In this document: one piece after another, positions 1,902 to 64,000 of the stretch
How positions within the stretch are numbered: position 1 is the first letter of the stretch
Layout: each line of letters starts with the position of its first letter
Source: Amphiscolops sp. MND2022
Lineage: Eukaryota
DNA: 64,000 nucleotides
Direction: 5' to 3'
Assembly (NCBI GenBank): GCA_964187785.1
Contig: OZ076409.1
Coordinates: forward strand, 72,790,001 to 72,854,000
Position numbers and translations under genes: made by a program
The notes under the pieces: model-generated
Told to the model about the DNA's origin: nothing
Database searches by the model: none
The model's input: only the letters and a program-made list of their open reading frames with translations

Positions 1902-1921
1902 GGGCATGCCGAGGCATGCCC
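1902..1921. promoter_or_regulatory. Conserved palindrome GGGCATGCC-GA-GGCATGCCC; matches the p53/p63/p73 response element (RRRCWWGYYY x2, no spacer). Representative copy
   Basis: Present near the 3' end of 44 of 45 cassette tails (e.g. 3195-3214, 44401-44420, 47886-47905, 50069-50088). GGGCATGCCG + AGGCATGCCC matches the consensus at 19/20 positions. The motif is certain; the p53 function is inferred. Confidence 0.6.
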
Positions 1922-1965
1922 TTCGACGACGTATGCCAAATACCTTTAACCCGACGCCCGCAGTC

Positions 1966-1972
1966 CTGGGTG
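1966..1972 (+). other. Cassette junction core CTRG|GTG (representative; 45 copies)
   Basis: CTGGGTG at 1966, 19354, 30323 and 36763; CTAGGTG at the other 41 boundaries (e.g. 3254, 4546, 5849, 7121). Flanking families switch on either side of it. Confidence 0.9.
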
Positions 1973-2394
1973 CCGGGATTTCTATTCGATAAAGTATGTG
2001 GCGCGCCTTGGGTAGGGTCCCTTGCGCGCTCTTGGGTATGGTGTTCACCAGCTAGGAAATAGGGGTCGATTTTTCGGGATCTCCTAAACTAGCCACACGA
2101 TTTGGCTGAAATTTGGCACACGTACTCCCCTCGGCATGGTGAAGATGATTTCCTACTAGCGTTTTGCTCGCAAAATTTTTTTTGTTGTCCAAAATAACGG
2201 TTTTTGGTGGAAAATTTTGAACTTTTTTTAAATTTCATCTTATATCTCGCCACGGGTTTACGCTAGCGCTTCAAAACCCTGCTAAAGAAAGCTTGCAAAC
2301 TGTCTCAGCAATGCGGTGTGAAATTTTCAGCACAATCGGACTCAAACTCAAGGAGATATAGCGTTTTTCCGGAGCGGGGGGGTTTCATTTTTCT

Positions 2395-2546
2395 AACGGT
2401 CCAGCTTATCTTAGCCATTTTTTCGAAAATGTACTTGCCTAAAGACCTCCCCTGGCCGGTTTTATTCCCAGCAAAACCATTTGGCCCTAAATACGGAGTT
2501 TCAGCGTTCCAGCATTCCCGGGCGAAAAGTTGTGTGACTTAGAAAA
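2395..2546 (+). repeat. Conserved central core of standard cassettes (~150 bp; ...CCTAAAG(G/A)CCTCCCCTGGCCG...CCATTTGGCCCTAAATACGGAGTTTCAGCGTTCCAGC...GACTTAGAAAA)
   Basis: The longest block shared across standard units. A degenerate version occurs in L2 units (about 49183-49248); it is not recognisable in L1, L3 or L4. Confidence 0.9.
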
Positions 2547-2943
2547 ATTCAAAAATTTTGAAATTTTTTTTTTCGGTTTTCCGCCCTCCCCCCCGAGGGG
2601 AAAAGACCCCCCAACCAGTAATTTGAGTGAATTCATGTGGAAAGGCCATGTTTAGAGGAGAAAAATCCCGTTTAAATCGTCTTTTTATCTTTATTCAACG
2701 TTGACTTATGACGTTTTGAAGGTGATGTTTGGAAGGTGTGAAGCACGTGAAAAGTAAACGTTATGAGTATTTATCTGATCTAAAAGCCATTGAGATGCAA
2801 TCTGTTTTGCTCAAAACGTAATTCATATCCGTTTGGTAGTCAATCAACACCCTTTGTTGTCATTTGACATCTTTTTTTGTTGATATAAGAAAAAATTTTG
2901 TGTATTTATTAATTTTTTTCTCATCAAATAACTTGAAACAGTT

Positions 2944-2988
2944 GAGTACATTCCATCCCCCCTTCACGGGGGAGATGAGAATGTACTC
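2944..2988. other. ~44-nt hairpin/inverted repeat, type A (GAGTACATTYCATCTCCC-loop-GGGAGATGAGAATGTACTC), preceded by CAGTT. Representative copy
   Basis: One per standard cassette, roughly 245-290 nt before the junction (e.g. 10667-10709, 36476-36518). Variants occur in L2 units at 47442 and 49626. Confidence 0.93.
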
Positions 2989-3387
2989 GCAAAAAGCCCC
3001 AAACTACGGCCCTTACCTTCCTGAGCTACGCAGTATAAAGATTGCATATTGGTTCCGACATTTTGATAGAGTTATATCTTGGTAATCTGTCTGGGTATGC
3101 AGAAAAACCAGCACGTGCTTTTTTATACCAAGTTGCTCACAACGACATTTATTTTATATCAACGCCCCCATATTTATCAACGCCCCCCGTCCGTGGGCAT
3201 GCCGAGGCATGCCCTTCGACGACGTATACCAAGATATGTTCGAGCGCGTTAGCCTAGGTGCCGGTGTTTTTTTACACAATGGGGGAAGTTGCGCGGTTGG
3301 GGAGGGTCCCTGACGCGCTTCCGTGGTATCGGGTCTTTCAACCGATGAAAACGACATAAAAAATTGGGATCTCGTAAACTAGCCATA

Positions 3388-3628
3388 CGATTTGGCTGAA
3401 ATTTGGCACACGTACCCCCCTCGGCACGGTGAAGATGATTCCCTACTGACGTTTTGCTCGCTAAACATTTTTTGTTGACCAAAATAACGGTTTTTGGGGT
3501 AAAATTTTGAACTTTTTTTAAATTTCATCTTATATCTCGCCACGGGTACACGCTAGCGCTTCCAAACCTTTCTGACGAAACCTTGCAAACTGTCTCAGGA
3601 ATGCGGTGTGAAATTTTCAGCTCAATCG
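3388..3628. repeat. Imperfect internal inverted repeat pair (CGATTTGGCTGAAATTTGGCACAC ... GTGTGAAATTTTCAGCTCAATCG). Representative copy
   Basis: 3388-3411 versus the reverse complement of 3606-3628 (CGATTGAGCTGAAAATTTCACAC). The left box is recognisable about 125-155 nt after nearly every junction, including most long units. Confidence 0.8.
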
Positions 3629-14798: not shown

Positions 14799-17353
14799 GT
14801 GGCCGGAAATTTTTTTTTCATCAAAATCTTTGCCATTGGGGGAGGGGCCCCGGATGGCCAGTAGTTCGGCTTGGCTACCTGCAAAATCAGGTACAAAAAA
14901 ACACGATCTCAAAATTGGCCCGTCAGAAATCGCTCATTTTTTGCATGCGGCCCTAAAATCAATATATAAGAACAAAGTCCTGCTGACGTTTTGCCGAAAA
15001 AACATTTTTTGTTGACCAAAAATAACATTTTTCATGCCAAAATGACCGTTTTTTCACATTTTTCAACTTTGAGAGCTCATATCTCGTTCCCAGGTGCCCG
15101 GAGCGGTTCGCACGTGAACTGCAATATTGCTCAGCGTTGTTAATGGAGTGCGTGGACAAATTTTGGTCTGAATCGGACTTAAACTCGGGGAGATGTAAAC
15201 GGATTTTTGGGGGTTTCCGGGGTAAATTTTTTAACGGTCCAGCTTATCTTTGCCATTTTTTGGAAAATGTACTCGCCTAAAGGCCTCCCCCTGGCCGAAT
15301 TTACTCCCAGCAAAACCATTTGGCCGTAAATACGGAGTTTCAGCGTTCTAGTATTTCCGGGCGAAAAGTTGTGGGACTTAGAAAAAATTCAAAATTTTTC
15401 AAAAAATTTTTTTTTCGTTTTCCGGCCCCCCAATGAAGGGGAACGACCCCCCAACTAGGATTTTTGGTGAATCCATGCGAAAAGGTCTTGTTTAGTGGAG
15501 AAAAATGCCGTTTAGAGCGACTTTTTATCTTAACTTGACGTTGACTTATGTCGTTTTGAATTTGATATTAGTATGTGTTGAGCATGTGAAAAGTTGAACA
15601 TTTCAGTTGTTCTTTCGTGTTAGCCATTGAGATACAAGCTGTAGTGATCAAATTGTGATTTTTTGCAGTTTCGTGGTGCTTTTGGTGTATTTTGATTCTT
15701 TTGATAAAAAAGTTGTTCTTTATATATTGACAATTTTGGTGTATTGATTCAAATGAACATGAAACAGTTGAGTACATTTCATCTCCCTCTTGGGGGAGAT
15801 GAGAATGTACTCGCTAAAGTCCTAGTACTATGACCCATTTTTGTTTTTATCAGACGCAGATACTGCCAACGGATACTTTTTGCTGGTGCAACTTTCCTGT
15901 GCACAATGTCTTTAGAAGCTAGAAAACTCTATGTCTCTAGCTTACTTCTCCTACAATTTCGTCACCAACGTCAACGCCACACACTCTCACTAACGCCCAC
16001 CGTCTGTGGGCATGCCGAGGCATGCCCTTCGACGACGTATGCCAAATAGCGCCACAGGGCGCCCAATTTTGTCTAGGTGGCCGGAAATTTTTTTTTTCAT
16101 CAAAATCTTTGCCATTGGGGGAGGGGCCCCGGATGGCCAGTAGTTCGGCTTGGCTACCTGCAAAATCAGGTACAAAAAAACACGATCTCAAAATTGGCCC
16201 GTCAGAAATCGCTCATTTTTTGCATGCGGCCCTAAAATCAATATATAAGAACAAAGTCCTGCTGACGTTTTGCCGAAAAAACATTTTTTGTTGACCAAAA
16301 ATAACATTTTTCATGCCAAAATGACTGTTTTTTCACATTTTTCAACTTTGAGAGCTCATATCTCGTTCCCAGGTACCCGGAGCGGTTCGCACGTGAACTG
16401 CAATATTGCTCAGCGTTGTTAACGGAGTGCGTGGACAAATTTTGGTCCAAATCGGACTTAAACTCGGGGAGATGTAAACGGATTTTTGGGGGTTTCCGGG
16501 GTAAATTTTTTAACGGTCCAGCTTATCTTTGCCATTTTTTGGAAAATGTACTCGCCTAAAGGCCTCCCCCTGGCCGAATTTACTCCCAGCAAAACCATTT
16601 GGCCCTAAATACGGCGTTTCAGCGTTCTAGCATTTGCGGGCGAAAAGTTGTGGGACTTAGAAAAAATTCAAAATTTTTCAAAAATTTTTTTTTCGTTTTC
16701 CGGCCCCCCAATGAAGGGGAACGACCCCCCAACTAGGATTTTTGGTGAATCCATGCGAAAACGTCTTGTTTAGTGGAGAAAAATGCCGTTTAGAGCGACT
16801 TTTTATCTTAACTTGACGTTGACTTATGTCGTTTTGAATTTGATATTAGTATGTGTTGAGCATGTGAAAAGTTGAACATTTCAGTTGTTCTTTCGTGTTA
16901 GCCATTGAGATACAAGCTGTAGTGATCAAATTGTGATTTTTTGCAGTTTCGTGGTGCTTTTGGTGTATTTTGATTCTTTTGATAAAAATTTGTTCTTTAT
17001 ATATTGACAATTTTGGTGTATTGATTCAAATGAACATGAAACAGTTGAGTACATTTCATCTCCCTCTTGGGGGAGATGAGAATGTACTCGCTAAAGTCCT
17101 AGTACTATGACCCATTTTTGTTTTTATCAGACGCAGATACTGCCAACGGATACTTTTTGTTGGTGCCACTTTCCTGTGCACAATGTCTTTAGAAGCTAGA
17201 AAACTCTATGTCTCTAGCTTACTTCTCCTACAAATTCGTCACCAACGTCAACGCCACACACTTTCACTAACGCCCACCGTCTGTGGGCATGCCGAGGCAT
17301 GCCCTTCGACGACGTATGCCAAATAGCGCCACAGGGCGCCCAATTTTGTCTAG
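14799..17353 (+). repeat. Recent direct duplication of one cassette (14799-16076 and 16077-17353)
   Basis: Two adjacent units with the same head, middle and tail, differing only by scattered substitutions. Confidence 0.93.
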
Positions 17354-35495: not shown

Positions 35496-36766
35496 GTGGT
35501 CTGTCCCGGTTAGGACATTAAAATAGGGCGAGGCCGGGGAGGGTCCCGTGCCGAGTTTTGGGTAGCGCGGAGCAGGGTTCAACATCTTACGTACCCCCGA
35601 CCAAAAAACGACGATCTCGAATCCCACCCGTACGATTCGGCTGAAATTTGGCATGCGGCTTCCTCTAGCGATTCTAAGAACTTTTCCCTACTACCATTTT
35701 GCCCAGAAATTATTTTTTGTTGACTTTTAGACTATTTTAGGGTCAGGAAGGAGCGTTTTTTCAAAAAAATTTTTTTCAAGAGCCCATATCTCGCTCCCAC
35801 GTGCTCGGAGCGGGTCGCATGTGGACGTTGATATTGCTGGGCACTTCGTAAGGAGTCCGTAGACAAATTTTCGTCCAGATCGGATAAAAATTGACTGAGT
35901 AATAGCCGCAAATCGGACGATTTTTCTCGAAAATTTTGGTACATCTAGTCTATCTCTGCCGTTTTTTGCCCAGTTTTTTTTCCAAGACCTCTCCTAAAGA
36001 CCTCCCCTGGCCAGTTTACCTCCCAAAAAAACCATTTGGCCCTTTTGCCGCAGTTTCAGCGTTCCAGGATTCCCCGGGTAAAAGATAAATGACTTAGAAT
36101 TTTTTCAAAAATTTTTCAAAATTTTTTTTTTCAACTTTAGGCCTCCCAAAGTCAAACAACTTCCACACAACTAGTATTGCAAGTGGATGCATGTGGAAAG
36201 TACTTGGATAGACGAGAAAAATGAGCTATTATAAACTTCTGTAGCTTGACCTGACGTTGACTTATGACAATTTTAGTGTGAGCTTGCTATGTGAGAAAAA
36301 AATTCAAAAATTGAAAATCGAAGCTAAGTTCCATCTAAAACTCATCGGAATCCGTTGAATCCATTCTAAAGCGGTTCAATTCCAGCTGTTAAGTGCAGCA
36401 ATACCATTCAAGGTCGTTTGACTCATTTTCATAAGTTTTGACACCGTCTTATCCATCCGAAAATTCGAAACAGTTGAGTACATTCCATCTCCCCTCCGTG
36501 GGAGATGGTAATGTACTCGAAAAAAGCCAAAGTCCTACCGCCCCATTCTACCCGGAGTGGTGCTAGCTATGCAGTAGCGTGAGCTCCAGGTTGTTTGCAG
36601 TAGCCTTTACGTATGTTGTGACTATGTATTACAATTATATCTCTTTAACTAAACATGAAAAAATTGTTTCAATCCCAAATTTTTTTTTTCAACTTTAGTA
36701 TGTATATACATATACAACATTATACAGTGTCGCCCTACTTGCCATCACAGTCATTGCCTGCACTGG
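35496..36766 (+). repeat. Divergent singleton cassette (1271 bp) lacking the GGGCATGCC palindrome
   Basis: Has the GAAATTTGGCA box, core and type A hairpin, but a unique head and tail; ends in CTGG. Confidence 0.9.
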
Positions 36767-39700
36767 GTGGCCGGAAATTTTTTTTTTCATCAAAATCTTT
36801 GCCATTGGGGGAGGGGCCCCGGATGGCCAGTAGTACGGCATAGCTCCCTACGGAATCCAGGCGGAAAAAACGTGATTTTGGAAACTAGCCGTCAGAATTT
36901 GCTCAAATTTTGCATACGGCTTCCTATAACAATCCTAAGAACTAATCCCTACTGGCATTTTGCCCGAAAAGCGCAAAAAGTTGGTCAAAATCTTAGTTTT
37001 TTGGTCAAAAAATGGCGTTTTTTCGAAAAATTTTTTTTTCAGAGACAATTACTCGTAACTGGTTCACCCAGCGCTAAAACGCCTAGCTGATTTATTGTCG
37101 GGCACTTCATGAGGAATGCGTATACAAATTTTCGTCCAAATCGGATAAAAGTTGATTGAGAAATAACTGAAAATTTGAGGCATTTTTTTGGAAATTTTTG
37201 AAATCCCAGTCTATCTCTGCCGTTTTTTGCCCAGATTTTTTTCCAGACACTCTCCTAAAGACCTCCCCTGGCCGGTTTACCTCCCAGCAAAACCATTTGG
37301 CCCTAAATACGGAGTTTCAGCATTCCAGCAAACCCCGGGTAAAAGATAAATGACTTAGAATTTTTTCGAAAAATTTTTCAAAATTTTTTTTTTCAAATTC
37401 AGGCCTCCTAAAGTAAAGAAAGTTCCACACAACTAGGATTGCAAGTGATAGCATGTGGAAAGTGCTTGAATAGACGAGAAAAATGAGCTATTATACGACT
37501 CTATAGCTTAACCTAACGTTGACTTATGCCAATTTTAGTGTGAGCTTCGTATGTGCTTGAAAAATCAAAAAAACCTAAAAGTCTTTTTAAGGTAATCAGG
37601 ATACGTCCAATCAACCGCAGAGCTGTTATATTGCCGTTGTGTAGTAGAGCAACACCATTTAGAGTGTTTTGACCCATTTTGACAAGTTTTGATACAGTCT
37701 TGTTCATCCAATAGCACAAAACAGTTGAGTACATTCCATCTCCCCCCTTGTGGGGGAGATGAGAATGTACTCGCTAAAAGTCAGGTACTATAGCGCCCAT
37801 TTTGTTTTATTCGACGCTAGTGATGCTATTGCACACGAATACAATAATTTTGTCAAATCATGTTTGACATGATGAATCTTACTATACATTTAGTGAACGT
37901 TTACCTACTACTACAACATCGCATCCCTGACGTCAACGCCACATACTCGCATCAACGCCCACCGTCCGTGGGCATGCCGAGGCATGCCCTTCGACGACGT
38001 ATGCCAAATAGCGCCACAGGGCGCAAACTTGTCCGCTAGGTGCCGGGATTTCCATTCGATAAGGAATTCTGCGCGTGTGGGTAGTGCCCCTGGCGCGCTC
38101 CTGTGTTTTCGGTTTTCCTACTCCTAAATAGACCCCCTGAATTCCGGGATCTCCTAAACTATCCATACGATTTGGCTGAAATTTGGCACACGTACCCCCC
38201 TCGGCACGGTGAAGATGATTTCCTACTGACGTTTTTCCCGCTAAACATTTTTTGTTGACCAAAATAACGGTTTTTGGGGTAAAATTTTGAACTTTTTTTA
38301 AATTTCATCTTATATCTCGCCACGGGTACACGCTAGCGCTTCCAAACCTTGCTGACGAAAGTTTGCAAACTGTCTCAGGAATGCTGTGTGAAATTTTCAG
38401 CTCAATCGGACTTAAACTCGAGGAGATATAGCGTTTTCCCGGAGCGGGGGGGTTTCAATTTTCTAACGGTCCAGCTTATCTTTGCCATTTTTTCGAAAAT
38501 GCACTCGCCTAAAGGCCTCCCCTGGCCGGTTTTATTCCCAACAAAACCATTTGGCCCTAAATACGGAGTTTCAGCGTTCCAGCATTCCCGGGCGAAAAGT
38601 TGTGGGACTTAGAAAAGTTCAAAAATTTTCAAAAAAAATTTTTTCCGTTATTTGGGCCCTCAAAGTGGGGGAAAAGACCCCCCAACCAGTAAAGCAAGTG
38701 AATGCATGTGGAAAGCCCTTTTTTAGACGAGAAAAATGCCGTCTAGAACGTCTTTTTATCTTAACTTGACATTGACTTTTGTCGTTTTGAAGGTGACCGT
38801 TAGATACGGAAAATTGATGTTTTGAGTATTTATCCCATCTGAAAGCCATTGAGATACAACATGTTTTGCTCAAAACGTGTTTCATTGCAGTTTCGCTGTC
38901 CATTATCACCCTTTGGTGTCTTTTCACGTAATTTTCGTTTCTATAATAACAATTTTTTTGTGTATTTATTCATTTTATTCTCATCAAATAACTTGAAACA
39001 GTTGAGTACATTCCATCTCCCTTCCCGGGGGAGATGAGAATGTACTCGCTAAAGGTCAGGAACTACGGTCTATATCTTCCACAACACAAATGGGATTGCA
39101 AATGGTTTCAGTTTGTCGCAGAAAACTTCTTTTTGCCCTCTGTGACTCGACAAAATGAACGTTTCTTACTTACTTTGAAACTCAGCATACCACAACTCAT
39201 CTCTAACGTCAGCGCCCCCCTACTTGCATCAACGCCCACCGTCCGTGGGCATGCCGAGGCATGCCCTTCGACGACGTATACCAAGATATACCTGGAGCGC
39301 GGTAGCCGCTAGGTGCCGGGATTTTCTATTCGACAAGTTTGCGCGCCTTGGGGAGGGTCCCTTTGCGCGCTTTAAGATCCAGGTGTTTCCAACTCCTAAA
39401 CGGGCATGTGATTTCGACGATCTCCTAAACTAGCCATACGATTTGGCTGAAATTTGGCACACGTACCCCCCTCGGCACGGTGAAGATGATTTTTTACTGA
39501 CGTTTTTCCCGCTAAACATTTTTTGTTGACCAAAATAACGGTTTTTGGGGTAAAATTTTCAACTTTTTTTAAATTTCATCTTATATCTCGCCACGGGTAC
39601 ACGCTAGCGCTTCCAAACCTTGCTGACGAAAGTTTGCAAACTGTCCCAGGAATGCTGTGTGAAATTTACAGCTCAATCGGACTTAAACTCGAGGAGATAT

Positions 39701-42700: not shown

Positions 42701-45700
42701 AAAGCCATTGAGATACAAGGTGTAGCACTCAGAACGTGTTTAATTCTAAATTAGCAATGCATCAACACTTTTTGTGTCTTTGGACTCTGTTAAAAAATTT
42801 TTTCCGACTAAAATCAAAAATTATTTATAATTATTCACATTTTTTTCTGATCTCATGACTCGAAACAGTTGAGTACATTCCATCTCCCTTCCCGGGGGAG
42901 ATGAGAATGTACTCTCTAAAGACCAGGTACTACAGTACTTACCTTCCCCGAGCAACGCCCCATAAAAATTGCGTTTTGATCATTCTATTTTGACATAATT
43001 CTATCTTTGTAATTTGACTGGAAATGAAGAAAATCCGCACGTGCTCTTTTATATCAAGTATCTTAACAACGCCATCTCTTTAACGTCAACGCCCCATAGT
43101 TCACATCAACGCCCACCGTCCGTGGGCATGCCGAGGCATGCCCTTCGACGACGTATGCCAAAGATATTCCCGAGCGCGTTAGCCTAGGTGCCGGGATTTC
43201 TATTCGATAAGGAATTTTGCGCGGTTGGGTAGGGCCCCGTGAGCGCGCCAGGGGATAGTGTTAGAACAACAAGGATTTGGGCATCAGTTGGGAGCGATTT
43301 TCTAAACTATCCGTACGATTTGGCTGAAATTTGGCATGAAGCTTCCTTGGAACATTCTAAGAACAAATCCCTACTGGCGTTTTGCTGGGAAAAATCAAAA
43401 AGTTGGTCAAAAATGCGATTTTCCGACAAAATTTTTGACTTTTTTTTCTTTTTCAACTCATATCTCGCCACAGGGTTACGCTAGCGCTTCGCAACCTATG
43501 ATCGTGTTTTGTAGGGCGTTGTCTGTAGAACACGTATGCCAAATTTGGTGGCGATCGGACTTGAACTCAGCGAGTTAGAGCGATTTTTTAGGTGAATTTT
43601 TTGACATTTTTTGCATTTGCCGATTTATCTCTGCCGTTTTTGCCCAGATTTTTTTTTGAGACCCTCTCCTAAAGACCTCCCCTGGCCGGTTTACCTCCCA
43701 GCAAAACCATTTGGCCCTAAATACGAAGTTTCAGCGTTCTAGCAATCCCGGGCGAAAAGTTATGGGACTTAGAAAATTTTTTCGAAAACGCAAAATGTGT
43801 AAAGTCAACTTCAGGCCTCCCAAAGTCAAGGAACTTCCACACAACTAGTATTGCAAGTGAATGCATGTGGAAAGTACTCTAATAGACGAGGATAATGCGC
43901 TATAGAACGACTCTGTAGCTTAACCTGACGTTGACTTATGGTGTTTTGAATGTGGGCTTGCTAAGGGGTCTGAAAATCAAAAATTGAAAATGGAAACTAA
44001 GTCTTATTGAAAACTCACCGGAATCCTTGCAATCGGCCCCAGGGCGTGCTCAATTGTAGTTTTCCATTCTGTCAACACCACTCAAGGTCTTTTGACTTAT
44101 GTTGAAAAAATTGACACCGTATTATGTATCATTCATTCGATAGCACGAAACAGTTGAGTACATTCCATCTCCCTTTCGGGGGAGATGAGAATGTACTCGC
44201 TAAAGTCCAGGTACTACAGCCCATTTTTCTTTTGATGCAACGCTCTTTATGCTAGTGCGCACAAGTATTATTCTTTTAACAGAATTTTCTTTTTAACTGC
44301 AGTTTGACTTGGACTTGACATAAACTAAACGTTTTTGTCCCTACAACATACACATGACTAACGTCAACGCCCCATCCTTGCATCAACGCCCACCGTCCGT
44401 GGGCATGCCGAGGCATGCCCTTCGACGACGTATGCCCTCACAATCGCGGTAGCCGCTAGGTGCCGGGATTTCTATTCGATAAAGTATTTTGCGCGGTTGG
44501 GTAGGGCCCCGTGAGCGCGCCAGGGGATTGTGTTAGAACAACCGGAAATTCGGCATACGATTTTGGCGATTTTCTAAACTATCCATACGATTTGGCTCAA
44601 ATTTGGCATACGGGTTCCTGAGACAGATATAAGAACTAATTCCTACTGGCATTTTGCCCGGAAAATTTTTTTTGTTGCCCAAAATTGAAATTTTCGGCAA
44701 AAAAATGCGATTTTTTTTGAAAAATTTTTTTTGAGAGGCCATATCTTTTTTCAGGGTGTCCGGAGCGGGACGCGTTAAACTGATTATAAACTCTACGGTT
44801 CATGGGCTTTACGGAGAACCTAAGCTCGTTTCGCTCGGACAAATAGTCTTGGAGATATAACGGGATTTTTCGGGAATTTTTTGAAAATTTTTCTAACGGT
44901 CCAGCTTATCTTTGCCATTTTTTCAAAAATGCACTCGCCTAAAGGCCTCCCCTGGCCGGTTTTATTCCCAGCAAAACCATTTGGCCCTAAATACGGAGTT
45001 TCAGCGTTCCAGCATTCCCGGGCGAAAAGTTGTGGGACTTAGAAAAATTTCAAAATTTTTCAAAAAATTTTTTTCCGTTTTCCGTCCTCCCCCCCGAGGG
45101 GAAAAGACCCCCCAACCAGTAATTTGAGTGAATTCATGTGGAAAGGCCATGTTTAGAGGAGAAAAATGCCGTTTAGATCGTCTTTTTATTTTAACCTGTC
45201 GTTGACTTATGTTGTTTTGAAGGTGATGTTTGGATGTGTGAAGCATGTGAAAAGGTAATTTATTGTGTCTTTAGCTCTTCTAAAAGCCATTGAGATACAA
45301 GGTGTAGCACTCAGAACGTGTTTAATTCTAAATTAGCAATGCATCAACACTTTTTGTGTCTTTGGACTCTGTTAAAAAATTTTTTCCGACTAAAATCAAA
45401 AATTATTTATAATTATTCACATTTTTTTCTGATCTCATGACTCGAAACAGTTGAGTACATTCCATCTCCCTTCCCGGGGGAGATGAGAATGTACTCTCTA
45501 AAGACCAGGTACTACAGTACTTACCTTCCCCGAGCAACGCCCCATAAAAATTGCGTTTTGATCATTCTATTTTGACATAATTCTATCTTTGTAATTTGAC
45601 TGGAAATGAAGAAAATCCGCACGTGCTCTTTTATATCAAGTATCTTAACAACGCCATCTCTTTAACGTCAACGCCCCATAGTTCACATCAACGCCCACCG

Positions 45701-45769
45701 TCCGTGGGCATGCCGAGGCATGCCCTTCGACGACGTATGCCAAAGATATTCCCGAGCGCGTTAGCCTAG

Positions 45770-47962
45770 GTGGAGGTTATTTTATAATAATTAATGTGTT
45801 TTTTTCCGGAGTTTGTGGCTTTGGAAAAAACAAAAGGCGAGAAATCGGGCACTCCGGGCTGAACCGTATACACTCAAATTTCGCCCATTTTTTATACGAT
45901 CTCGAAACTCAGCCGTACGATTTGGCTGAAAATTTGCATGCGGCTACAAATTGAGATTCTAAGAACTATTTCCTGGTGACATTTTTTTGAAATTTTTGTG
46001 TACGTTTCCCCCCCGCCCCCTAAAGGGGCCAATTTTCCCCACTTTTGCACTTATGAGTCAAATTCTCAAAACTGGTGGATCTGAGCGTATTCCCGCCGGG
46101 GACAACTTTTAACAAGCGCTCCTCAGTAGACCTTCATGACTTTTTACTTTGGTGGTACGTTCACCCCCCGAGGAGGAAATTGCGTTTTTGTGACTTCCGG
46201 TCGAGGCTTTTTTCACCCAAAAATTAGATTTAAGCCAGTTTTGAGCAGGAAGGAGTGGATTTAAAGTGCCTGTACCCTGCTAAAAATTTGTTGGGCTTGT
46301 AGCGATATATCTCATACCAAGTCTGGTTTTCACCCCCAAACCCCCCTTGAGACCAAAATTCACCCAAAGTTTTTTACCTCTGTTTGTAGTTTTTTTACCG
46401 AATATCGTCATTTCCATGGGTAAGGAGTTGAATTAGGGGCTCCTAATAGGGTACCAATGTTCAAGTACACTTGCAGTGCAACTGATTGACCCTTTTTGGG
46501 CCTCTCCTGTGTTCGGCAAGGACCGGAAGCGGTGTAACCCCCCCTTTTTTGACGTTTGTTGACCTTGAGACTCGCGCTTAGATGACGTTTATGTCGCGCG
46601 AATCCTACAAACAAGTATTAGGATGACATGCTAGCCAACTAGAGAGCAGTAAGGGAAACAATATTATACCGGAAGTAACCCCCCGTGACCGGAAGTTGTC
46701 ATTTTTGACCGCAAATGGTCCAAAACCTAGCGTAAAAGCAGTTTTTCATTGCTTTTAAAGTCAACTTCTTACATTTTTCAATCTGCGCGAGCTTTTCTTC
46801 AGGTTCGTTTTTGTTGCCAGTGCACAGCAACGAATATACAACTGTAAAATTTTCGCTATAAAATTGTCGGAGAGAGAAATAACGGATTATTTGGACTTTT
46901 TTTCAAAAATATTAGTCTACATCTGTCATTTTTACCCAATGTTACTCAACAGTAGAACCACAGGTTTTATTCTCTGCCCAAAAATATGCCTAACAAATTC
47001 ACCTGTCCCTTTGGTTGCAGTTTGAGCATTCTAGCTTTACCTGGTCACAAGTTAGGGGACTTGAAATAGTTTCAAAAATTTTTCCGAAAAATTTTTCTAA
47101 ACGTCATGTCTCCCAAAGTTAAGAAACTTCCGCACAACTAGGATTACAAGTGAATGCACGTGGTAAGACCTATAATTGGAGAGAAAAATTCAGTTTGGAA
47201 CGTCTCTTTATCGTAACGTGACGTTAAGAGAAGTTGCTTTGAATGCGAGCTTGATGAGACGTCGAGAAGTAACAGTGTGTAAATGGAACCTATGTCTCGA
47301 CAAATACTCATCGGAATACATGAGATGAACCCCAATTACCCTCAATTTCAGTTGCCTAGTACAACAACGTCTTCCAAGGACCCTTTAATCTTTTTGATAA
47401 GCGTTGAAGTCATCATTAGCTTGAGTTCGCAAGAAACAATTGAGTACATTCTCATCTCTCCCCATCGGGTGAGATGAGAATGTTTTTGCTAAAAGCCAGG
47501 TACTACGGCCCAATTTTGTTTTATTGCGACGCATTCTGTGCTTTAGCACATAGATACTTTTATTCCGTCTCACTTTTTGTATACACTCTGATTTGTTGTT
47601 ATAAATTTCTCGTCATTACTTTACATAAACTAATTACCATAAAACTTTAACGTCAAAGCCACATTCATTTAGACGCCCACCATTCCGTAGGTATGCCGAG
47701 GTATGCCATTCAAAGATGTATGTCAAACGCAAATGCGATAAAATTAGTGCTGAAAATCGGAAACAGTGACAAACAGTTTTGACTTTTTGATATTTGTTAG
47801 GTTTTCATATGGAACTTACACATCACTGACAATTCAAAACATTCCAGCTGACGCTCACATACAAACATCAACGCCCACCGTCTGTGGGCATGCCGAGGCA
47901 TGCCCTTCGACGACGTATAGCAAATTCCTTTAATATCTACACCCAATTGCGGTAGCAGCTAG
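45770..47962 (+). repeat. Long cassette type L2 (2193 bp)
   Basis: Head GTGGAGGTTATT, CCGGAAG-rich module, degenerate core, type A hairpin and two palindrome blocks. Diverged paralogue of the next unit. Confidence 0.9.
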
Positions 47963-50142
47963 GTGGAGGTTATTATATATCAATTAAAGTGTTTTTTTCC
48001 GGAGTTTGTGGCTTTGGAAAAAACAAAAGGCGAAAAATTGGGCACTCCAGGCTGAACCTAAAAACACCCTAAAATTGGCCCGATTTTTTTACGATCTCGA
48101 AACCCAGCCGTACGATTTGGCTGAAAATTTGCATGTGGCTCCTAATCAATGAGTAATGAAAAAGTGTAGGAGTGACTTTTCCTGAAAAAATTGTTTTTGT
48201 TGCACTTTTTGCGCAATTTTTGACCGATTGTTGCGTTTTTTATGTCACTTTTGACTTTTCAGGCCAAAAACTCATAGATGCTTTGATCCTAGCGCATCAA
48301 GTGTTTCGACCAAAAAGTTGCAGCATGTTCTTTTACGTATGTTGGGAAATTTTGGTTGCCATCGTATCACCCCCCACTGAGATAGAGGGTAACTTCCGGT
48401 GGATTTTACCACCCTAAAAACGAGGACCTCCTAAATTTCAGCATGAAGCGGTAGTTTTAGCGTTCTCATACCCTGCTGAAGTTTTGTTGGGCATATTGAG
48501 ATATACCTGATACCATGTGTTCAGTTCACCCCCCATCACCCCCTGGACCGGAAATGAACTTTTTTGTGCACTTTCATACCGGAAGTCTCCAATTAAGCCG
48601 TTAAGCAGTCCTTGTACGAGCAACTACCAGGACATCAAAATTGAAGTACCACCTGAGGTCAACTTAATGACTACGTGCTGTCCAGTCCGGGGGTCCGCTA
48701 TGACCGGAAATGGGGTCAAAACCCCCCTTTTTGGTTGTTTTTTACCAATTCGACTAGTGTTTGGTCCACATTCAAGTCACATAAGTCAATTGAACAAGTG
48801 TGAGAATAAACTGTATGTTCACTGCGTAGATGTAACTGACACTGACAGATACCGGAAGTAACCCCCCGTAACCGGAAGTTGTCATTTTTGACCGGAAATG
48901 GTCCAAAATGTAGCGTAAAATCAGTTTTTCACTGCTTTTTGAAGTCAACTCAATACATTTTCAATCTTGGCGATCTTGTATTCAGGTTCGTTTTTGTTAC
49001 CTGTGCACTTTGCAACAAATATACATCTGTAAAGTTTTCTCCATAATATCGTCGGATAGAGAAATAACGTGTTTTTGGGACTTTTTTCAAAAATTTTAGA
49101 CTATATCTGTCTTTTTTACCCAAAGTTATTCAACAGTACAACCACAGTGGTTAGACTCTGTCCAAATATATGTCAAACAAAACTATTTGGCCCATTGGCC
49201 TCAGTTTGAGCGTTCCAGCTTTGCGTGGTCATAAGCTATGGAACTTGAAAAAAAGTCAAACTTTTTTCAAAAAAAAATTTCTCACATTCATGTCTCCCAA
49301 AGTGAAGAGACTTCCACACAACTAGGATTGCAAGTGGATGCCTGTGGCAAGCCGTATAATTAAAGAGAAAAATGCCGCAAAGAACCTCTTTATATCGTAA
49401 CTTGACGTTAACGTATGGTAATTTGAATGAGAGCTTGATAAGAGGTCGAGAAGTCAAAGTGTGTAAATGGAACGTATGTCTCGTCGAAAACTCATAAGAA
49501 TACATGCTGTGAACACCAATTATCATCAATTGCAGTTGTCTAGTGTAACAACGTCTTTCAGGGACATTTTAACCATTTTCATAAGTGCCAGATGTTTTTT
49601 TAAATTCAATTAGCGAGAAACACTTGAGTACATTCTCATCTCTCCCCAGCGGGTGAGATGAGAATGTTCTTGCTAAAAGCCAGGTACTACGGCCCACTAT
49701 TGTTTTAATGCGACGCATTCTGTGCTGAAGCACATAGATATTTTTATTTCGTCTGACTTCTCGTATACACTCTGACTTGTTATTGTAAATTTCTCGTCAT
49801 TACTTTACATAAACTTACTACGATACAACATTGACGTCAACTCCACATACATTTAGACGCCCACCTTTCCGTAGGTATGCCGAGGCATGCCTTTCGACGA
49901 CGTGTGTCAAAGCGCAAACGCGATAAAAAGTGCTGAAATTCTGAAACAGTGACAAACAATTTTGATTATTTGACATATGGTAGGTTTTTATATGAAACGT
50001 ACACATCACTGACATTTCACAACATTCCAGCTGACGCCCACATACCAATGTCAACGCCCACCGTCCGTGGGCATGCCGAGGCATGCCCTTCGACGACGTA
50101 TGCCAATTTTGTATATCTACACCCAATTGCGGTAGCAGCTAG
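47963..50142 (+). repeat. Long cassette type L2' (2180 bp)
   Basis: Colinear with 45770-47962 but clearly diverged. Confidence 0.9.
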
Positions 50143-51413: not shown

Positions 51414-54213
51414 GTGGCGGGGGGCTGTCCCCAATAGAATATAGTGAGGTAGGGTAGGGTTCCCTACCGAACATTCAGTACTGAAAGACTCTTGTAGTAT
51501 GAAAATTTTTCGATGTTTTGAGACCGATTTCGGATTCCACCCGTCAGAAGTTTATGATTTTTTGGCCCCCACCCAGATTTTGGGCACTGATCGCCCCCCA
51601 CCAGGTTCCATACCCGTGGTTTCGTTGTGACGGGTACACGAGCGACCGTTAGGGGTCAATCAGGGGGTAAAATTTATAAAAGTGTGAATAACTTTTCCCC
51701 CCGTCGTTTTAGCAGGTCCGGTCACTAGTAAAGGTTTGTTGGGCATCATGCAGTGGGTACGGGGGGCCAAACAAAAATTTTCTATCATGCACCGTTACGG
51801 ACTTGGCCCCCCGCCCAAACCGCTATTTTACCGGAAATTGCACTTTTTGAACGGGAAGGAGTCGTCTGAGCGCGGAGTCGTTTGGTAATGTTTTGTAGAG
51901 CATCTGAAGACGTGGTGGGGGACATGTAGTTTGCCGACCCCAGTTTACCCCTCGGACGGGAAATGACCGTTATGTTAGTTTTAAAATTGCCCCCCGTCAA
52001 CTTTAACCGCTATTTCTGGTGTGAAGGAGTCGGAACAGCGTGTCGGGTGCTATATATCAAAAGTAGCTTTAAACAAGGACCTATCAGAAACATGTGGTTT
52101 GGGACCCTTTGAACGGACCCGTTAGCCGGAAATAGGGTGACCGCCTCCTTTTTTGGTGTTAAAACCGTAAAACGGGCATTAAAGTGAAATTATCTCGTGA
52201 ACGCGTGGAGCAATCGTGTCCATCACTCCTACAAGGTTTCATACCCATGACATGGTGTCTTCAGGGGGGCAAACAGATCAGCGCTATCTATCACCGTTAC
52301 GGACTTTGCCCCCCAGCCTAACCGCTATATTACCGGAAACTGCCCTTTTTGACCGGGAAGGAGTCGTCTGAGAGTGGAGTCGTTAAGTAATGTTTTGTAG
52401 AGCATCTAGAGACGTGTTGGGGGACATGTAGTTTGCCGACCCCTGTTTACCCCTCGGACGGGAAATGACCGTTATGTTAGTTTTAAAATTGCCCCCCGTC
52501 AACTTTAACCGCTATTTCTGGTGTGAAGGAGTCGGAATAGCGTGTCGGGTGCTACATATCAAAAGTAGCTTTAAACAAGGACCTATCAGAAACATGTGGT
52601 TTGGGACCCTTGGAACGGACCCGTTAGCCGGAAATAGGGTGACCGCCTCCTTTTTCTGCGGTTAAAATTGTAAAACGGGCATTGAAGTGGAATTATCTTG
52701 AAAACGCGTGGAGCTATAGTGTCCTTCACTACTACAAGGTTTCATACTCAAGATACGGTGCCTTCAGGGGGGAAAACAGATTACCGCTATATATCACCGT
52801 TACGGACTTGGCCCCCAGCCTAACCGCTATGTTACCGGAAATGTCATTTTTTGAGCCAAAAGGGTTAGTCCCAGCGTGGGAACGTCAGGTAACTTTATGT
52901 AGAACTCAATGAGACGAGTTGGGGGATATGGTTTCAGTCACCCCCCGTTGACCCGTTAGACCGGAAACGACCGTTATGTAGTGAAAAATGTAATTTTTAT
53001 ACTTTTTGAAGGCCATTTAGGGCAGGAAGTATCGGTAATATGTCTTTGGACAGTATACAATGAAAGTTTTGGTGTGAAACAAGCAATCTGAAATATCCGT
53101 TATTATGATTCGGAAGTCACACTAACAGCGAAAATGACCTTTATGTAGTGAAAATTTTTTTCACATTTTTTTTTTGCTTTCGATAGGTCCTTCAAGCCAA
53201 GAAGTAGCTGTATTAGGTCTTTGGCCACTTTATGATGATTGTGGTGTTGTGAGATGACCGTACGAACTTGACCTTTATAATGCCCCTGAAGTTGCTGCGG
53301 CACGAGAAATTTCAGAAAGTTTGTCTTTTCTGTGTTTTGTTGGAATAAACATTTAATTTCATTAAACCAATGTGCATTCAGGGTGTTTAGAAAGCTTCAA
53401 GAAAAGAATTTAATAGGAAACATGGCGGTGAGAAATAACAAATTGCCACGTAAATCCAACCCCCGTTGGGGAATAAATGTAATAAATTGTTTTTGGAAGT
53501 GCCAATCGACGTGTATTTGCGGATCATAGCCACGGTATTGTCTATTCGTGTTTCTTTTTGAAGACTTTGAACATTTTCACTTTATCAGCTTGAGGTTTTA
53601 ACTCTATATGCTTAATAACCGTTACAATATGATAGCCCTCAAGTTGACCTTGTGTCAACTTGAAAGGGCTATCCTTTCACAACTGCGCAGCAACAGTGTG
53701 ATTGAGTGATTTAGTTATTATCCAAGGCCAATTTGAACTTCAACAAGATTTTAACCACAATATTTAAAACTATTCATATGATTCTTTCAAAAGGGTAAAT
53801 ATTTAACTAATATTTGACAAAAAAACTCCAACCTTTAATTTGTGGACCGAATAGTAGGAAAACCATGTTTCTTAACGTTGTTGGATGAAATTCAAAATGA
53901 TGCTTTTAAAAGAATAACAATTCTTGACACTATATATTTTTTCTATTTTCCAATAAACTATTTTTCCAAAAGTCTATTTTTCCAATAAACATTGTTGATT
54001 GATGCCCATTCATAGTGACTGGAAAGTTTTACCAACTGTGGTGTTTTTTTTTAATCAGAGGTGAAACCGCTCCCTACCGTCGCATAATGTAATTCAAGCC
54101 GACGCCCACATGCCAACATCAACGCCCACCGTCCGTAGGCATGCCGAGGCATGCCTTTCGACGACGTATGCCAAATCACGCCCCTGCGAGGTCACTAAAG
54201 CGGTAGCGGCTAG
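51414..54213 (+). repeat. Long cassette type L3 (2800 bp), an L1 relative with an internal ~502-bp tandem duplication
   Basis: ACCGTTACGGACTT recurs at 51791, 52293 and 52796. The duplicated block is homologous to L1 positions ~374-849. Type B hairpin at 53631. Confidence 0.92.
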
Positions 54214-58600: not shown

Positions 58601-61600
58601 TGCCATTTTTTCGAAAATGCACTCGCCTAAAGGCCTCCCCTGGCCGGTTTTATTCCCAGCAAAACCATTTGGCCCTAAATACGGAGTTTCAGCGTTCCAG
58701 CATTCTCGGGCGAAAAGTTGTGGGACTTAGAAAATTTCAAAAATTTTCAAAAAATTTTTTTTTCGTTATTTGGGCCCCCAAAGTGGGGGAAAAGACCCCC
58801 CAACCAGTAAATCAAGTGAATGCATGTGGAAAGGCCATGTTTAGAGGAGAAAAATGCCGTTTAGAACGTCTTTTTATCTTGGCTCAACGTTGACTTATGA
58901 CGTTTTGAAGGTGATGTTTGGAGGTGTAAAGCAAGTGAATAGTAAACGTTATGAGTATTTATCTGATCTGAAAGCCATTGAGATGCAATATGGTTTGCAC
59001 AAAACGTAATTCATTGCAGTTTGGCAATCAATCAACACCCTTTGTTGTCGTTTGACATACTTTTTTGTTGTTAAAATAAAAAATTTTGTGTATTTATTCA
59101 TTTTTTTCTCATCAAATAACTTGGAACAGTTGAGTACATTCCATCCCCCCCTTCCGGGGGAGATGAGAATGTACTCGCAAAAAGCACCGAACTACAGCCC
59201 TTACCTTCCCGAGCTACGCAGTATAAGGATTACATATTGGTTCCGATATTTTCATAGAGTTATATATTGGTAATCTGTCTGGATATGCCGAAAAATCAGC
59301 ACGTGCCTTTTAATACCAAGTTGCTCACAACGACAATTATTTTATATCAACGCCCCCATATTTATCAACGCCCCCCGTCCGTGGGCATGCCGAGGCATGC
59401 CCTTCGACGACCCGCACCAAAATATGCGTTAGCGCGGTAGCCGCTAGGTGCCGGTGTTTTTTTACACAATGGGGGAAGTTGCGCGGTTGGGGAGGGTCCC
59501 TGACGCGCTTCCGTGGTATCGGGTCTTTCAACCGATGAAAACGACATAAAAAATTGGGATCTCGAAAACTAGCCATACGATTTGGCTGAAATTTGGCACA
59601 CGTACCCCCCTCGGCACGGTGAAGATGATTCCCTACTGACGTTTTTCCCGCTAAACATTTTTTGTTGACCAAAATAACGGTTTTTGGGGTAAAATTTTCA
59701 ACTTTTTTTAAATTTCATCTTATATCTCGCCACGGGTGCACGCTAGCGCTTCCAAACCTTGCTGACGAAAGTTTGCAAACTGTCTCAGGAATGCTGTGTG
59801 AAAATTTCAGCTCAATCAGACTTAAACTCGAGGAGATATAGCGTTTTTCCGGAGCGGGGGGGTTTCATTTTTCTAACGGTCCAGCTTATCTTTGCCATTT
59901 TTTCAAAAATGCACTCGCCTAAAGGCCTCCCCTGGCCGGTTTTATTCCCAGCAAAACCATTTGGCCCTAAATACGGAGTTTCAGCGTTCCAGCATTCCCG
60001 GGCAAAAAGTTGTGGGACTTAGAAAATTTCAAAAATTTTCAAAATTTTTTTTTCCGTTATTTGGGCCCCCAAAGTGGGGGAAAAGACCCCCCAACCAGTA
60101 AAGCAAGTGAATGCATGTGCAAAGCCCTTGTTTAGAGGAGAAAAATGCCGTTTAGAACGTCTTTTTATCTTGGCTCAACGTTGACTTATGAGGTTTTGAA
60201 GGTGATGTTTGGAGGTGTAAAGCATGTGAATAGTAAACGTTATGAGTATTTATCTGATCTGAAAGCCATTGAGATGCAATATGGTTTGCTCAAAACGTAA
60301 TTCATGGCAGTTTGGCAATCAATCAACACCCTTTGTTGTCGTTTGACATACTTTTTTTGTTGTTATAATAAAAAATTTTGTGTATTTATTCATTTTTTTC
60401 TCATCAAATAACTTGAAACAGTTGAGTACATTCCATCCCCCCTTCACGGGGGAGATGAGAATGTACTCGCAGAAAGCCCCGAACTACGGCCCTTACCTTC
60501 CTGAGCTACGCAGTATAAAGATTGCATATTGGTTCCGACATTTTGATAGAGTTATATCTTGGTAATCTGTCTGGGTATGCAGAAAAACCAGCACGTGCTT
60601 TTTTATACCAAGTTGCTTACAACGACAATTATTTTATATCAACGCCCCCATATTTATCAACGCCCCCCGTCCGTGGGCATGCCGAGGCATGCCCTTCGAC
60701 GACGTATACCAAGATATGTTCGAGCGCGTTAGCCTAGGTGCCGGTGTTTTTTTACACAAAGGGGGATGTTGCGCGTGTGGGGAGGGTCCCTGACGCGCTC
60801 CCGGGATTTCGGATTTTTTAACCTTTACGTACCCATCAAAAATTTTGGGATCTCGAAAACTAGCCGTACGATTTGGCTGAAATTTGGCACACGTACCCCC
60901 CTCGGCACGGTGAAGATGATTCCCTACTGACGTTTTGCTCGCTAAACATTTTTTGTTGACCAAAATAACGGTTTTTGGGGTAAAATTTTCAACTTTTTTC
61001 AAATTTCATCTCATATCTCGCCACGGGTACACGCTAGCGCTTCCAAACCCTGCTGACGAAAGCTTGCAAACTGTCTCAGGAATGCTGTGTGAAATTTTCA
61101 GCTCAATCGGACCTAAACTCGGGGAGATATAGCGTTTTTCCGGAGCGGGGGGGTTTCATTTTTCTAACGGTCCAGCTTATCTTTGCCATTTTTTCGAAAA
61201 TGCACTCGCCTAAAGGCCTCCCCTGGCCGGTTTTATTCCCAACAAAACCATTTGGCCCTAAATACGGAGTTTCAGCGTTCCAGCATTCCCGGGCGAAAAG
61301 TTGTGGGACTTAGAAAAGTTCAAAAATTTTCAAAAAAAATTTTTTCCGTTATTTGGGCCCTCAAAGTGGGGGAAAAGACCCCCCAACCAGTAAAGCAAGT
61401 GAATGCATGTGGAAAGCCCTTGTTTAGACGAGAAAAATGCCGTTTAGAACGTCTTTTTATCTTAACTTGACATTGACTTTTGTCGTTTTGAAGGTGACCG
61501 TTAGATACGGAAAATTGATGTTTTGAGTATTTATCCCATCTGAAAGCCATTGAGATACAACATGTTTTGCTCAAAACGTGTTTCATTGCAGTTTCGCTGT

Positions 61601-64000
61601 CCATTATCACCCTTTGGTGTCTTTTCACGTAATTTTCGTTTCTATAATAACAATTTTTTTGTGTATTTATTCATTTTTTTCTCATCAAATAACTTGAAAC
61701 AGTTGAGTACATTCCATCTCCCTTCCCGGGGGAGATGAGAATGTACTCGCTAAAGGTCAGGAACTACGGTCTATATCTTCCACAACACAAAAGGGATTGC
61801 AAATGGTTTCAGTTGGTCGCAGAAAACTTCTTTTTGCCCTCTGTGACTCGACAAAATGAACGTTTCTTACTTACTTTGAAACTCAGCATACCACAACTCA
61901 TCTCTAACGTCAGCGCCCCCCTACTTGCATCAACGCCCACCGTCCGTGGGCATGCCGAGGCATGCCCTTCGACGACGTATACCAAGATATACCTGGAGCG
62001 CGGTAGCTGCTAGGTGGCCGGAAATTTTTTTTTCATCAAAATCTTTGCCATTGGGGGAGGGGCCCCGGATGGCCAGTAGTACGGGATAGCTTCCTACCAA
62101 ATCCAGGCGGAAAAAACGTGATTTCGGAAACTAGCCGTCAGAATTTGCTCAAATTTTGCATACGGCTTCCCATGACAATCCTAAGAACTAATCCCTACTG
62201 GCATTTTGCCCAAAAAACGCAAAAAGTTGGTCAAAATCTTAGTTTTTTGGTCAAAAAATGGCGTTTTTTCGAAAAAAAAATTTTTCTGAGACAATTACTC
62301 GTAACTGGTTCACCCAGCGCAAAAACGCCCAGCTGATTTATTGTTGGGCACTTCATGAGGAGTGCGTATACAAATTTTCGTCCAGATCGGAAAAAAAATG
62401 ACTAAGTATTAGCCGGAATTCGGACGCATTTTTTCGCAAATTTTTGAAAACCTAGTCTATCTCTGCCGTTTTTTGCCCAGATTTTTTTCCAGGTCCTCTC
62501 CTAAAAGCCTCCCCTGGCCGGTTTACTTCCCAGAAAAACCAATTGGCCCTAAATACGGAGTTTCAGCGTTCTAGCATTCCCGGGCGAAAAGATGTGGGAC
62601 TTAGAAAAAATTCAAAATTTTTCAAAAAATTTTTTTTCGTTTTCCGGCCCCCCAATGAAGGGGAACGACCCCCCAACGAGGATTTTTGGTGAATTCACGT
62701 GGAAAGGCCTTGTTTTGTGGAGCAAATTGCCGTTTAGAGCAACTTTTTATCTTAACTTGACGTTGACCTCTGTCGTTTTGAATTTGATATTAGTATGTGT
62801 TGAGCATGTGAAAAGTTGATGATTTCAGTTGTTCTCTCGTGTTCAAGCCATTGAGATACAAGCGGTAGTGATCAAAATGTGATTTATCGCACTTTGATGG
62901 TGCTTTTGGTGTATTTTGATTCTTTTAAATAAAAAGTTGTTCTTTATATTTTTGGTGTATTGATTCAAATGAACAAGAAACAGTTGAGTACATTTCATCT
63001 CCCCCCTTGTGGGGGAGATGAGGATGTACCCGCTAAATGACACGCACAATGGCCTAATTTTATTTTTATGCGACATTTTCTAGGCTTTTGCGCAAGCCCA
63101 CTAAAATTTAGACTGGTTTCCTTTTCTTTTACTCCAAAATTTTCCGTACTAACCACCTTACGCACCACCAGCTCAACGTAACATCTGTAACGTCAACGCC
63201 ACACACTCTCACTAACGCCCACCGTCCGTGGGCATGCCGAGGCATGCCCTTCGACGACGTATGCCAAATAGCGCCACAGGGCGCAAACATTCCCGCTAGG
63301 TGGCCGTGTCTTTTCGACGTGCTTTTGCATTGAGGAGTGGGTAGGGCCCCGCGACGACCTAGAAGAATTGGATGCTCACCGAAACGTGCAGAATTCTACG
63401 AGATCTCATAGTTTGAGCCATACGATTTTTCTGAAATTTGGCATGTGGCCTGGAATTGGTGAGTAGGTAAAACGTGTAGAAGGTAATTTTTCCCAAATTC
63501 CACTGTGAGACGAGATATGGGCAAATAACGGTCCCAAAAATGGCAAAAATGCACTTTTTTCAACTTTGTCAGCCCATATCTCGTTCCCAGGTGCCCGGAG
63601 CGGGACGCGTTAAGCTGATTATAAACTCTAGGGTGTTGAGGCTGTACGGGGAAGTCAGGCCCGTTCCGATCGGACTTGTAGTCTTGGAGAAATAACGGTA
63701 TTTTTGGGGAACCTTTTCTAACGGTCCAGCTTATCTTTGCCATTTTTTCGAAAATGTACTAGCCTAAAGGCCTCCCCCTGGCCGAATTTACTCCCAGCAA
63801 AACGATTTGGCCCTAAATACGGAGTTTCAGCGTTCCAGCATTCCCGGGCGAAAAGTTGTGGGACTTGGAAAATTTTCAAAATTTTTCAAATTTTTTTTTT
63901 CGTTTTCCGGGCCCCCAATGAAGGGGAAACGACCCCCCAACCAGTATTTTGAGTGAATTCATGTGGAAAGCCCTTGTTTTGACGAGAAAAGTACCGTTTA

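Follow-up and report, generated by a model that had tools for sequence, protein, structure and literature searches.

Helitron-like elements have been divided into HLE1, with TC...CTRR ends and insertion in A^T, and HLE2, with inverted repeats, insertion in T^T and DUF6570 (PMC11417382). In Helraiser, the 3' hairpin is the terminator: its loop matters, and the stem may be swapped with ~90% of activity kept (PMC4778049). A third clade, outside HLE1 and HLE2, is described from Paramecium (PMC13085455). Already known are also p53 sites in transposons (PMC3485254) and short Helitron arrays (PMC12001565), the p53-family element consisting of two RRRCWWGYYY half-sites with a spacer of 0–13 (PMC6696488). 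Here we analyze a 64,000-nt stretch of contig OZ076409.1 of Amphiscolops sp. MND2022, positions 72,790,001 to 72,854,000 (the window). Over its whole length (1–64000, plus strand) it is a head-to-tail array of non-autonomous Helitron-type elements, part of an ~6-Mb array at G000:C1 ~70.45–76.49 Mb, and the 3' ends of these elements carry a nearly invariant 20-mer resembling the p53-family element.

The window comprises 44 complete units of 1.27–2.8 kb (35496–38039 being counted as split) and two partial ones. Out of 45 CTRG|GTG junctions between them, 44 are preceded by the 20-mer, located 39–57 nt before the cut (35–53 nt from the 20-mer to the C of CTRG). Forty-three of these terminal 20-mers are exact GGGCATGCCGAGGCATGCCC, and one, at 54137–54156 (plus strand), is AGGCATGCCGAGGCATGCCT, with the outer pair changed to A–T and the R and Y of the consensus kept, so both the invariance in 44 of 45 cassette ends and the double change reported in the preliminary description are borne out. 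The only junction lacking the motif, 36766|36767, closes the unit 35496–36766 (plus strand), which ends in ...CTGCACTGG, belongs to a family without the 20-mer and uses the same junction. The fixed unit proved larger than described, approximately 35 nt, GTCYGT–20-mer–TTCGACGAC; it is the sole 16-mer block common to the 44 complete units. Its first copy occupies 1896–1930 on the plus strand (20-mer at 1902–1921), and the last of the 44 terminal 20-mers lies at 63230–63249. The statement that the units cannot be aligned with each other does not hold for the 2-kb and 1.3-kb types, which have ~100–160 nt near the 5' end in common, at ~72%.

The 20-mer matches the p53 consensus in 19 of 20 positions, with two CATG cores and zero spacer, the sole misfit being position 10 (G, not Y). 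Scanning with RRRCWWGYYYRRRCWWGYYY, allowing at most one mismatch, yields 44 matches in the window compared to 0.2 expected in shuffles, these matches being copies of one ancestral site and hence not independent. In the genome (1.07 Gb), GGGCATGCCGAGGCATGCCC occurs in 4,293 exact copies, and 761 were counted within one mismatch of the A...T form; the counts do not cover the mixed G...T and A...C forms, as the mismatch search gave exact matches alone. The motif-to-junction join is also present in one contig of a public run (depth 2.1), which argues against an assembly artefact, the uncovered parts of the unit carrying no evidential weight.

Each element runs from GTG to CTRG, and its own joint equals its own target, CTNG^DT. 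For example, the junction CTGG|GTG at 1966–1972 (plus strand) joins the CTRG 3' end of one element to the GTG 5' end of the next and thereby recreates CTNG^DT. The terminal 4-mer is family-specific (CTAG, CTGG or CTTG): among 4-mers before 353 sampled heads, CTAG is found 336 times and CTGG 15 times, and one family ends in CTTG. Almost all of these array heads (350) directly follow the end of another element, despite 73 unused internal CTNG^DT sites in the window, hence joints are preferred beyond the 6-mer itself. Nine single insertions had both ends resolved, two of the junctions being read by eye from offset alignments; eight of the nine occupy CTNG^GT or CTNG^AT without duplication, and the ninth, GTCC^TT. 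Of one set of 20 loci, 10 were left unresolved and 3 were tandem. The absence of a target-site duplication follows from different 4-mers on the left and on the right, e.g., CTCG|...CTAG| and CTTG|...CTAG|AT. A base other than G follows 22 ends (15 A, 7 T), and the next base is T in all ten inspected. At G000:C8:25.691–25.694 Mb (L132–L133), a single unit contains nested insertions in two of its internal CTNG^GT sites, which are separated by 13 bp.

The units themselves are non-coding, with no open reading frame of at least 200 aa in the window. The search with Helitron_like_N found many frames of ~2,375 aa inside motif clusters, and elements of 12–17 kb with intact RepHel frames lie in the array, bounded by identical junctions. 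These proteins combine an HUH motif, YxxxY (two tyrosines) and a Pif1 helicase, with Helitron_like_N and PIF1 above the cut-off in three of three. The first 750–810 nt of window units are common with coding elements, at identity up to 93%. A typical 1.29-kb unit (1970–3257, plus strand) has ~750 nt at the 5' end homologous to coding elements F, H and A, followed by the block at the 3' end and CTAG; the unit 14799–16076 (plus strand) matches the 5' end of element H, which has a 2603-aa RepHel frame, with 93% identity over its first 760 nt, and the unit 43188–44459 (plus strand) matches that of element F with 85% identity over its first 810 nt. The RepHel frame of element F is 2350 aa long, and this element carries the A...T motif near its end and terminates in CTAG. 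As 5' ends, block and junctions are shared with RepHel elements, the cassettes are almost certainly non-autonomous Helitrons. The coding lineages F, G and H, with ~30% protein identity, have the block in common at 86–98%, the rest of their 3' sequence being unalignable; lineage A, the commonest intact RepHel in the Helitron_like_N search, ends without the block.

In public data we found 30 relatives, with identity down to 26%. An ~70%-identical element on a metagenome contig (L165, OBOP01004400.1) carries at 812–836 the exact A...T motif, also the form of F and G, and a CGAG|GTG junction; cross-species conservation of the block rests on this one contig. In a Rep tree of 25 rows and 282 columns, 17 rows form a clade with 100/100 support on a branch of 1.66, separate from the HLE1-like (L173/L174) and DUF6570-bearing HLE2-like enzymes of this genome; the tree spans references labelled by Pfam, excludes published reference sets, unclassified HLEs of HELIANO and the Paramecium clade, omits L169, and has two mis-anchored HLE2-like rows, L167 and L168. 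DUF6570 is absent from three of three own proteins and five of five relatives, and present in five of six reference Helitrons scanned. GIY-YIG scores above the cut-off in four of five relatives; one own copy falls slightly short of it, and in full-length F the domain was not detected; one relative, P0015, has an OTU domain. Short terminal inverted repeats are not evident in the printed ends, no dedicated search having been made.

As far as the cited descriptions go, the elements resemble HLE1 and Helraiser in the RepHel with HUH, two tyrosines and Pif1, the lack of duplication, the palindrome before a CTRR-type end, and non-autonomous derivatives sharing these ends (PMC4778049, PMC11417382). 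Unlike HLE1, they start with GTG rather than TC, target CTNG^DT rather than A^T, and have a sequence-invariant palindrome 39–57 nt from the end; moreover, the enzyme is 2,350–2,600 aa long, forms a separate long branch and often has a GIY-YIG tail. With HLE2/Helitron2/Helentron they have in common a large RepHel, the OTU domain in P0015, and GIY-YIG, captured in one plant HLE2 family (PMC11417382), but they differ in the lack of DUF6570 in eight of eight proteins, a target other than T^T, and CTRG ends. Hence the elements fully belong to neither HLE1 nor HLE2. Like the Paramecium Helitrons, they fall outside both, with a sequence-specific target, clustered uniformly oriented copies and alternative 3' ends (PMC13085455). 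The Paramecium elements, compared here by description only, target C4A2 telomeric repeats and end in CCAA (PMC13085455), whereas here the target is the elements' own junction sequence in an animal chromosome. Rolling-circle elements in tandem are reported from Xenopus (PMC12001565) and from Meloidogyne centromeres (PMC13404089); however, the Xenopus arrays have 2–7 repeats (PMC12001565), and in the present array whole elements of many families, thousands in all, are joined precisely end to end over ~6 Mb. In the literature covered, that is, outside Repbase and most subscription papers and supplements, we found no Helitron with GTG...CTRG ends and the CTNG^DT target, and no p53 sites in Helitrons.

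Two other classes were considered. A Crypton, for which a tyrosine-recombinase gene and direct repeats of 4–6 bp would be expected, was rejected, as junction-bound coding units encode RepHel and end 4-mers differ at single insertions, with the recombinase loci of the genome not scanned for the motif; a Replitron was dropped once RepHel elements had been found at junctions. A 1,055-aa open frame with three ~993-bp DUF3504/tyrosine-recombinase repeats lies at G000:C3:2.082–2.085 Mb (L072–L074).

The array starts at a host CTAG|GTG site at C1:70,454,838 and could be traced to about 76.48 Mb; plus-strand junctions occur in 17 of 18 ten-kb samples from 72.40–76.21 Mb, in a single orientation. It (G000:C1:70.45–76.49 Mb) appears to hold most plus-strand copies of the genome. 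Neighbours with identical head types are more frequent than expected (44 compared to 16, of 153), but most neighbours have different heads, which a simple concatemer would not show; shuffling of heads and tails among units has joined up to six tails to one head. Targeting may contribute to this arrangement, as may multi-unit read-through and unequal crossing-over. Gaps of 15.7 kb upstream of the window were tried as autonomous elements and rejected, being runs of motif-less non-coding units.

The block is strongly constrained. A comparison of 53 family representatives gives GTCYGT-RGGCATGCCGAGGCATGCCY-TTCGACGAC as the fixed unit, and within the 20-mer only positions 1 and 20 vary, forming G–C in 48 and A–T in five representatives and never a mixed pair. 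GTC.GT, TTCGACGAC and the anti-consensus G10 are present in 53 of 53; the right-flank letters TTCGA.GA were forced by the extraction regular expression, the other fixed letters were not. In 39 short units, diversity equals 0.04 in the block compared to 0.33 overall. Among flank-intact copies in the genome, the core C4 is changed in seven (four of them upstream relics on C10) and G7 in four, none compensated. The block is also present in dispersed copies; one half-site is gone from five of 30 dispersed ends, and no such loss is seen in array samples. Elements with two copies have a decayed one, ~250 nt from the end, and a perfect terminal one. In the window, two such extra copies, at 47689–47708 (AGGTATGCCGAGGTATGCCA, both p53 cores broken) and 49873–49892 (AGGTATGCCGAGGCATGCCT), precede the terminal copy by ~197 nt; both are on the plus strand. 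Relic forms include AGGTATGTCGAGGCATACCT (five copies; stem kept, CWWG broken) and AGGCGTGGCGAGGCACGCCT (four copies; CGTG/CACG cores), and other relics break the stem as well. Compensatory changes destroying CWWG with the stem kept, proposed in the preliminary description as an argument against p53 binding, thus exist, but only in decayed copies 250–640 nt from the end and in no terminal copy. In terms of a p53-type pattern, terminal cores and degenerate positions are both fixed, and relics lose the cores.

We favour, at roughly even probability, the interpretation of the block as a 3' terminator or recognition signal for rolling-circle copying by the RepHel of coding relatives. Its position and form match the Helitron 3' palindrome before CTRR as described for known elements (PMC11417382, PMC4778049), so the subterminal hairpin, mentioned in the preliminary description as an alternative, fits a Helitron 3' end and is ranked above the p53 site. 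This preference is based on the fixation of bases irrelevant for p53, the complementarity of the variable pair, the retention of the block by non-coding units, which have nothing to express, and the maintenance of only the end-proximal copy; a perfect terminal copy next to a decayed upstream one suggests a role tied to the cut site. The double changes of relic copies that keep the stem while breaking CWWG count in favour, and so does a second conserved hairpin with compensatory changes. It is represented by GAGTACATT...AATGTACTC at 2944–2988 (plus strand), ~260 nt before the end, with a z-score of –6.9; it spans ~45 nt with a variable loop, has equivalents in most units (217 copies sampled), and is common to motif-bearing and motif-less non-coding units, with no match of its exact core, as a regular expression, in five coding elements checked. 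Under the terminator model, RepHel would nick at the 5' end of the element and peel off one strand, and the folded block would pause it before a cut is made at the following CTRG. As the joint of the circle, CTRG^GT, which tandem joints mimic, would equal the target, each insertion would create new targets and arrays would grow, and copies with a damaged block would propagate poorly, leaving the block frozen.

Several observations weigh against a terminator. In contrast to the exchangeable stem of Helraiser, the letters of the stem do not vary among three RepHel lineages with ~30% identity, which suggests a better fit to a conserved host protein. The block sits 39–57 nt from the end, lineage A and several non-coding families succeed without it, and 45 of 300 candidate junctions (some of them false) end without it. 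The end region folds with modest z-scores (–2.2, –3.2 and –0.6). A weak point is the covariation itself: five paired changes were observed compared to 1.95 expected (p 0.022, eight lineages), with p 0.09 for relics only and no paired change in four of seven relic lineages; the lineages are non-independent, and repair of palindromes could leave a pattern like that of selection, so the evidence for selection on the stem is suggestive and not decisive. Finally, a random 9-bp palindrome would fit RRRCWWGYY with a chance of ~1/2,000, to be read bearing in mind that many other motifs could equally have drawn notice. If the block is a terminator, the elements would constitute a Helitron clade with new rules (GTG start, megabase arrays, 6-nt self-mimicking target). 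Software that relies on TC/CTRR or on terminal inverted repeats likely overlooks such elements, and an HUH transposase that inserts sequence-specifically and has intact open frames deserves attention both for its mechanism and as a tool.

In the host genome, a gene of the p53/p63/p73 family is located at G000:C4:13.056 Mb (E-values of 3e-44 against p73 and 3e-43 against p63 structures), so a host lineage devoid of such genes, named in the preliminary description as a reason to abandon p53, is not the case. The protein keeps SCVGGLNRRP and EVRICACPSRDR, that is, intact DNA-contact motifs, the roles of these residues being assumed from human p53. Canonical contact motifs together with the consensus match make binding in vitro plausible, and the near-perfect response element claimed previously is real as a 19/20 match, with position 10 off consensus. 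The genome also contains tandem broken p53-domain copies at G000:C2:2.33–2.36 Mb (L035, L036), with a period of ~1.2–1.9 kb, interleaved with kinase-like fragments; a pair of open frames related to them is found on the small contig C26.

Binding of host p53/p63/p73 to the block in double-stranded DNA, with the site selected in cis and possibly used also as a hairpin, is thus possible, though on balance doubtful. Bound 39–57 nt upstream of the junction, the protein might open the joint for RepHel or license it, be it the joint of the array or that of the circle, or might time mobilization to germline or DNA-damage states. Consistent with this are the 19/20 match with two CATG cores and no spacer, the contact motifs of the host protein, the sharing of the block by F, G and H despite low protein identity and by the L165 element, the retention of R and Y in the sole fixed change, the rarity of uncompensated C4 and G7 changes, and the CGTG/CACG cores of the relic AGGCGTGGCGAGGCACGCCT, which are p63-preferred; moreover, the lineage-A end hints that ends gather host-factor sites. 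However, the degenerate R, W and Y positions show no drift, the sequence flanking the site is just as fixed, an additional site at a distance of 200 nt decays rather than adding binding, and sharing across lineages could stem from end-swapping by read-through in arrays. The p53-family role keeps its weight because of the frozen stem letters, the ~1/2,000 prior and the success of block-less lineages, all three noted above as difficulties for a terminator. The closest parallel is zebrafish EnSpm-N6_DR, a non-autonomous DNA transposon with a p53-type element in many copies, whose sites are reported to modulate adjacent genes (PMC3485254); here, the carrier is a Helitron, the site is predicted from sequence, and it appears to be selected for the element's own propagation. 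If p53 does bind, a transposon would be exploiting the guardian of the host genome in cis for its own copying, and whether transposon p53 sites serve the host or the element would become directly testable. The broadest scenario, in which an undescribed third-type Helitron clade with a GIY-YIG tail self-targets into mixed arrays of several megabases, and a host p53/p63/p73 site has become a permanent part of the 3' end in the most successful members of the clade, letting the damage sensor of the genome license or time rolling-circle copying, is speculative and, taken as a whole, rather unlikely.

Another sequence-specific binder, encoded by the host or by the element, or homogenization by gene conversion or palindrome repair without selection, would explain why all 35 nt are fixed, beyond the needs of a hairpin or of p53, and the shuffled heads and tails indicate active recombination. 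We consider this quite improbable, as both sides of the block diverge strongly and conversion alone would not confine the effect so sharply, and no candidate binder was found, the OB-fold-like accessory frame described below being a lead only. Maintenance of the array by the host as a p53 sink or enhancer cluster, suggested in the preliminary description, is very hard to credit: ~5,000 near-consensus sites make titration physically possible, but transposition of the elements into their own junctions accounts for the array, as shown by its intact RepHel frames, mixture of families and young copies, dispersed copies have the same block, and there is no gene in the 244 kb around the window, where just one 225-aa frame was seen.

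Rfam gave no match in the window, and Tandem Repeats Finder, with its period limit of 500, did not report the array. The last ~80 nt of the lineage-A 3' end (G000:C1:~23,994,500, L125; also L132) hold CCAAT, CACGTG and TTTCCCGCC, which we take to be NF-Y, E-box and E2F-like sites, at the place where other lineages carry the p53-like block; non-coding relatives ending in CACGTCTAG lack all three. A search of the Atlas with the RepHel N-terminus gave scores of just 0.76, leads only. In element H, a 324-aa accessory frame (L142:7556–8527, minus strand) resembles OB-fold single-strand-binding proteins (Atlas score 0.91, weak, a lead only), and lineage A carries accessory frames of its own.

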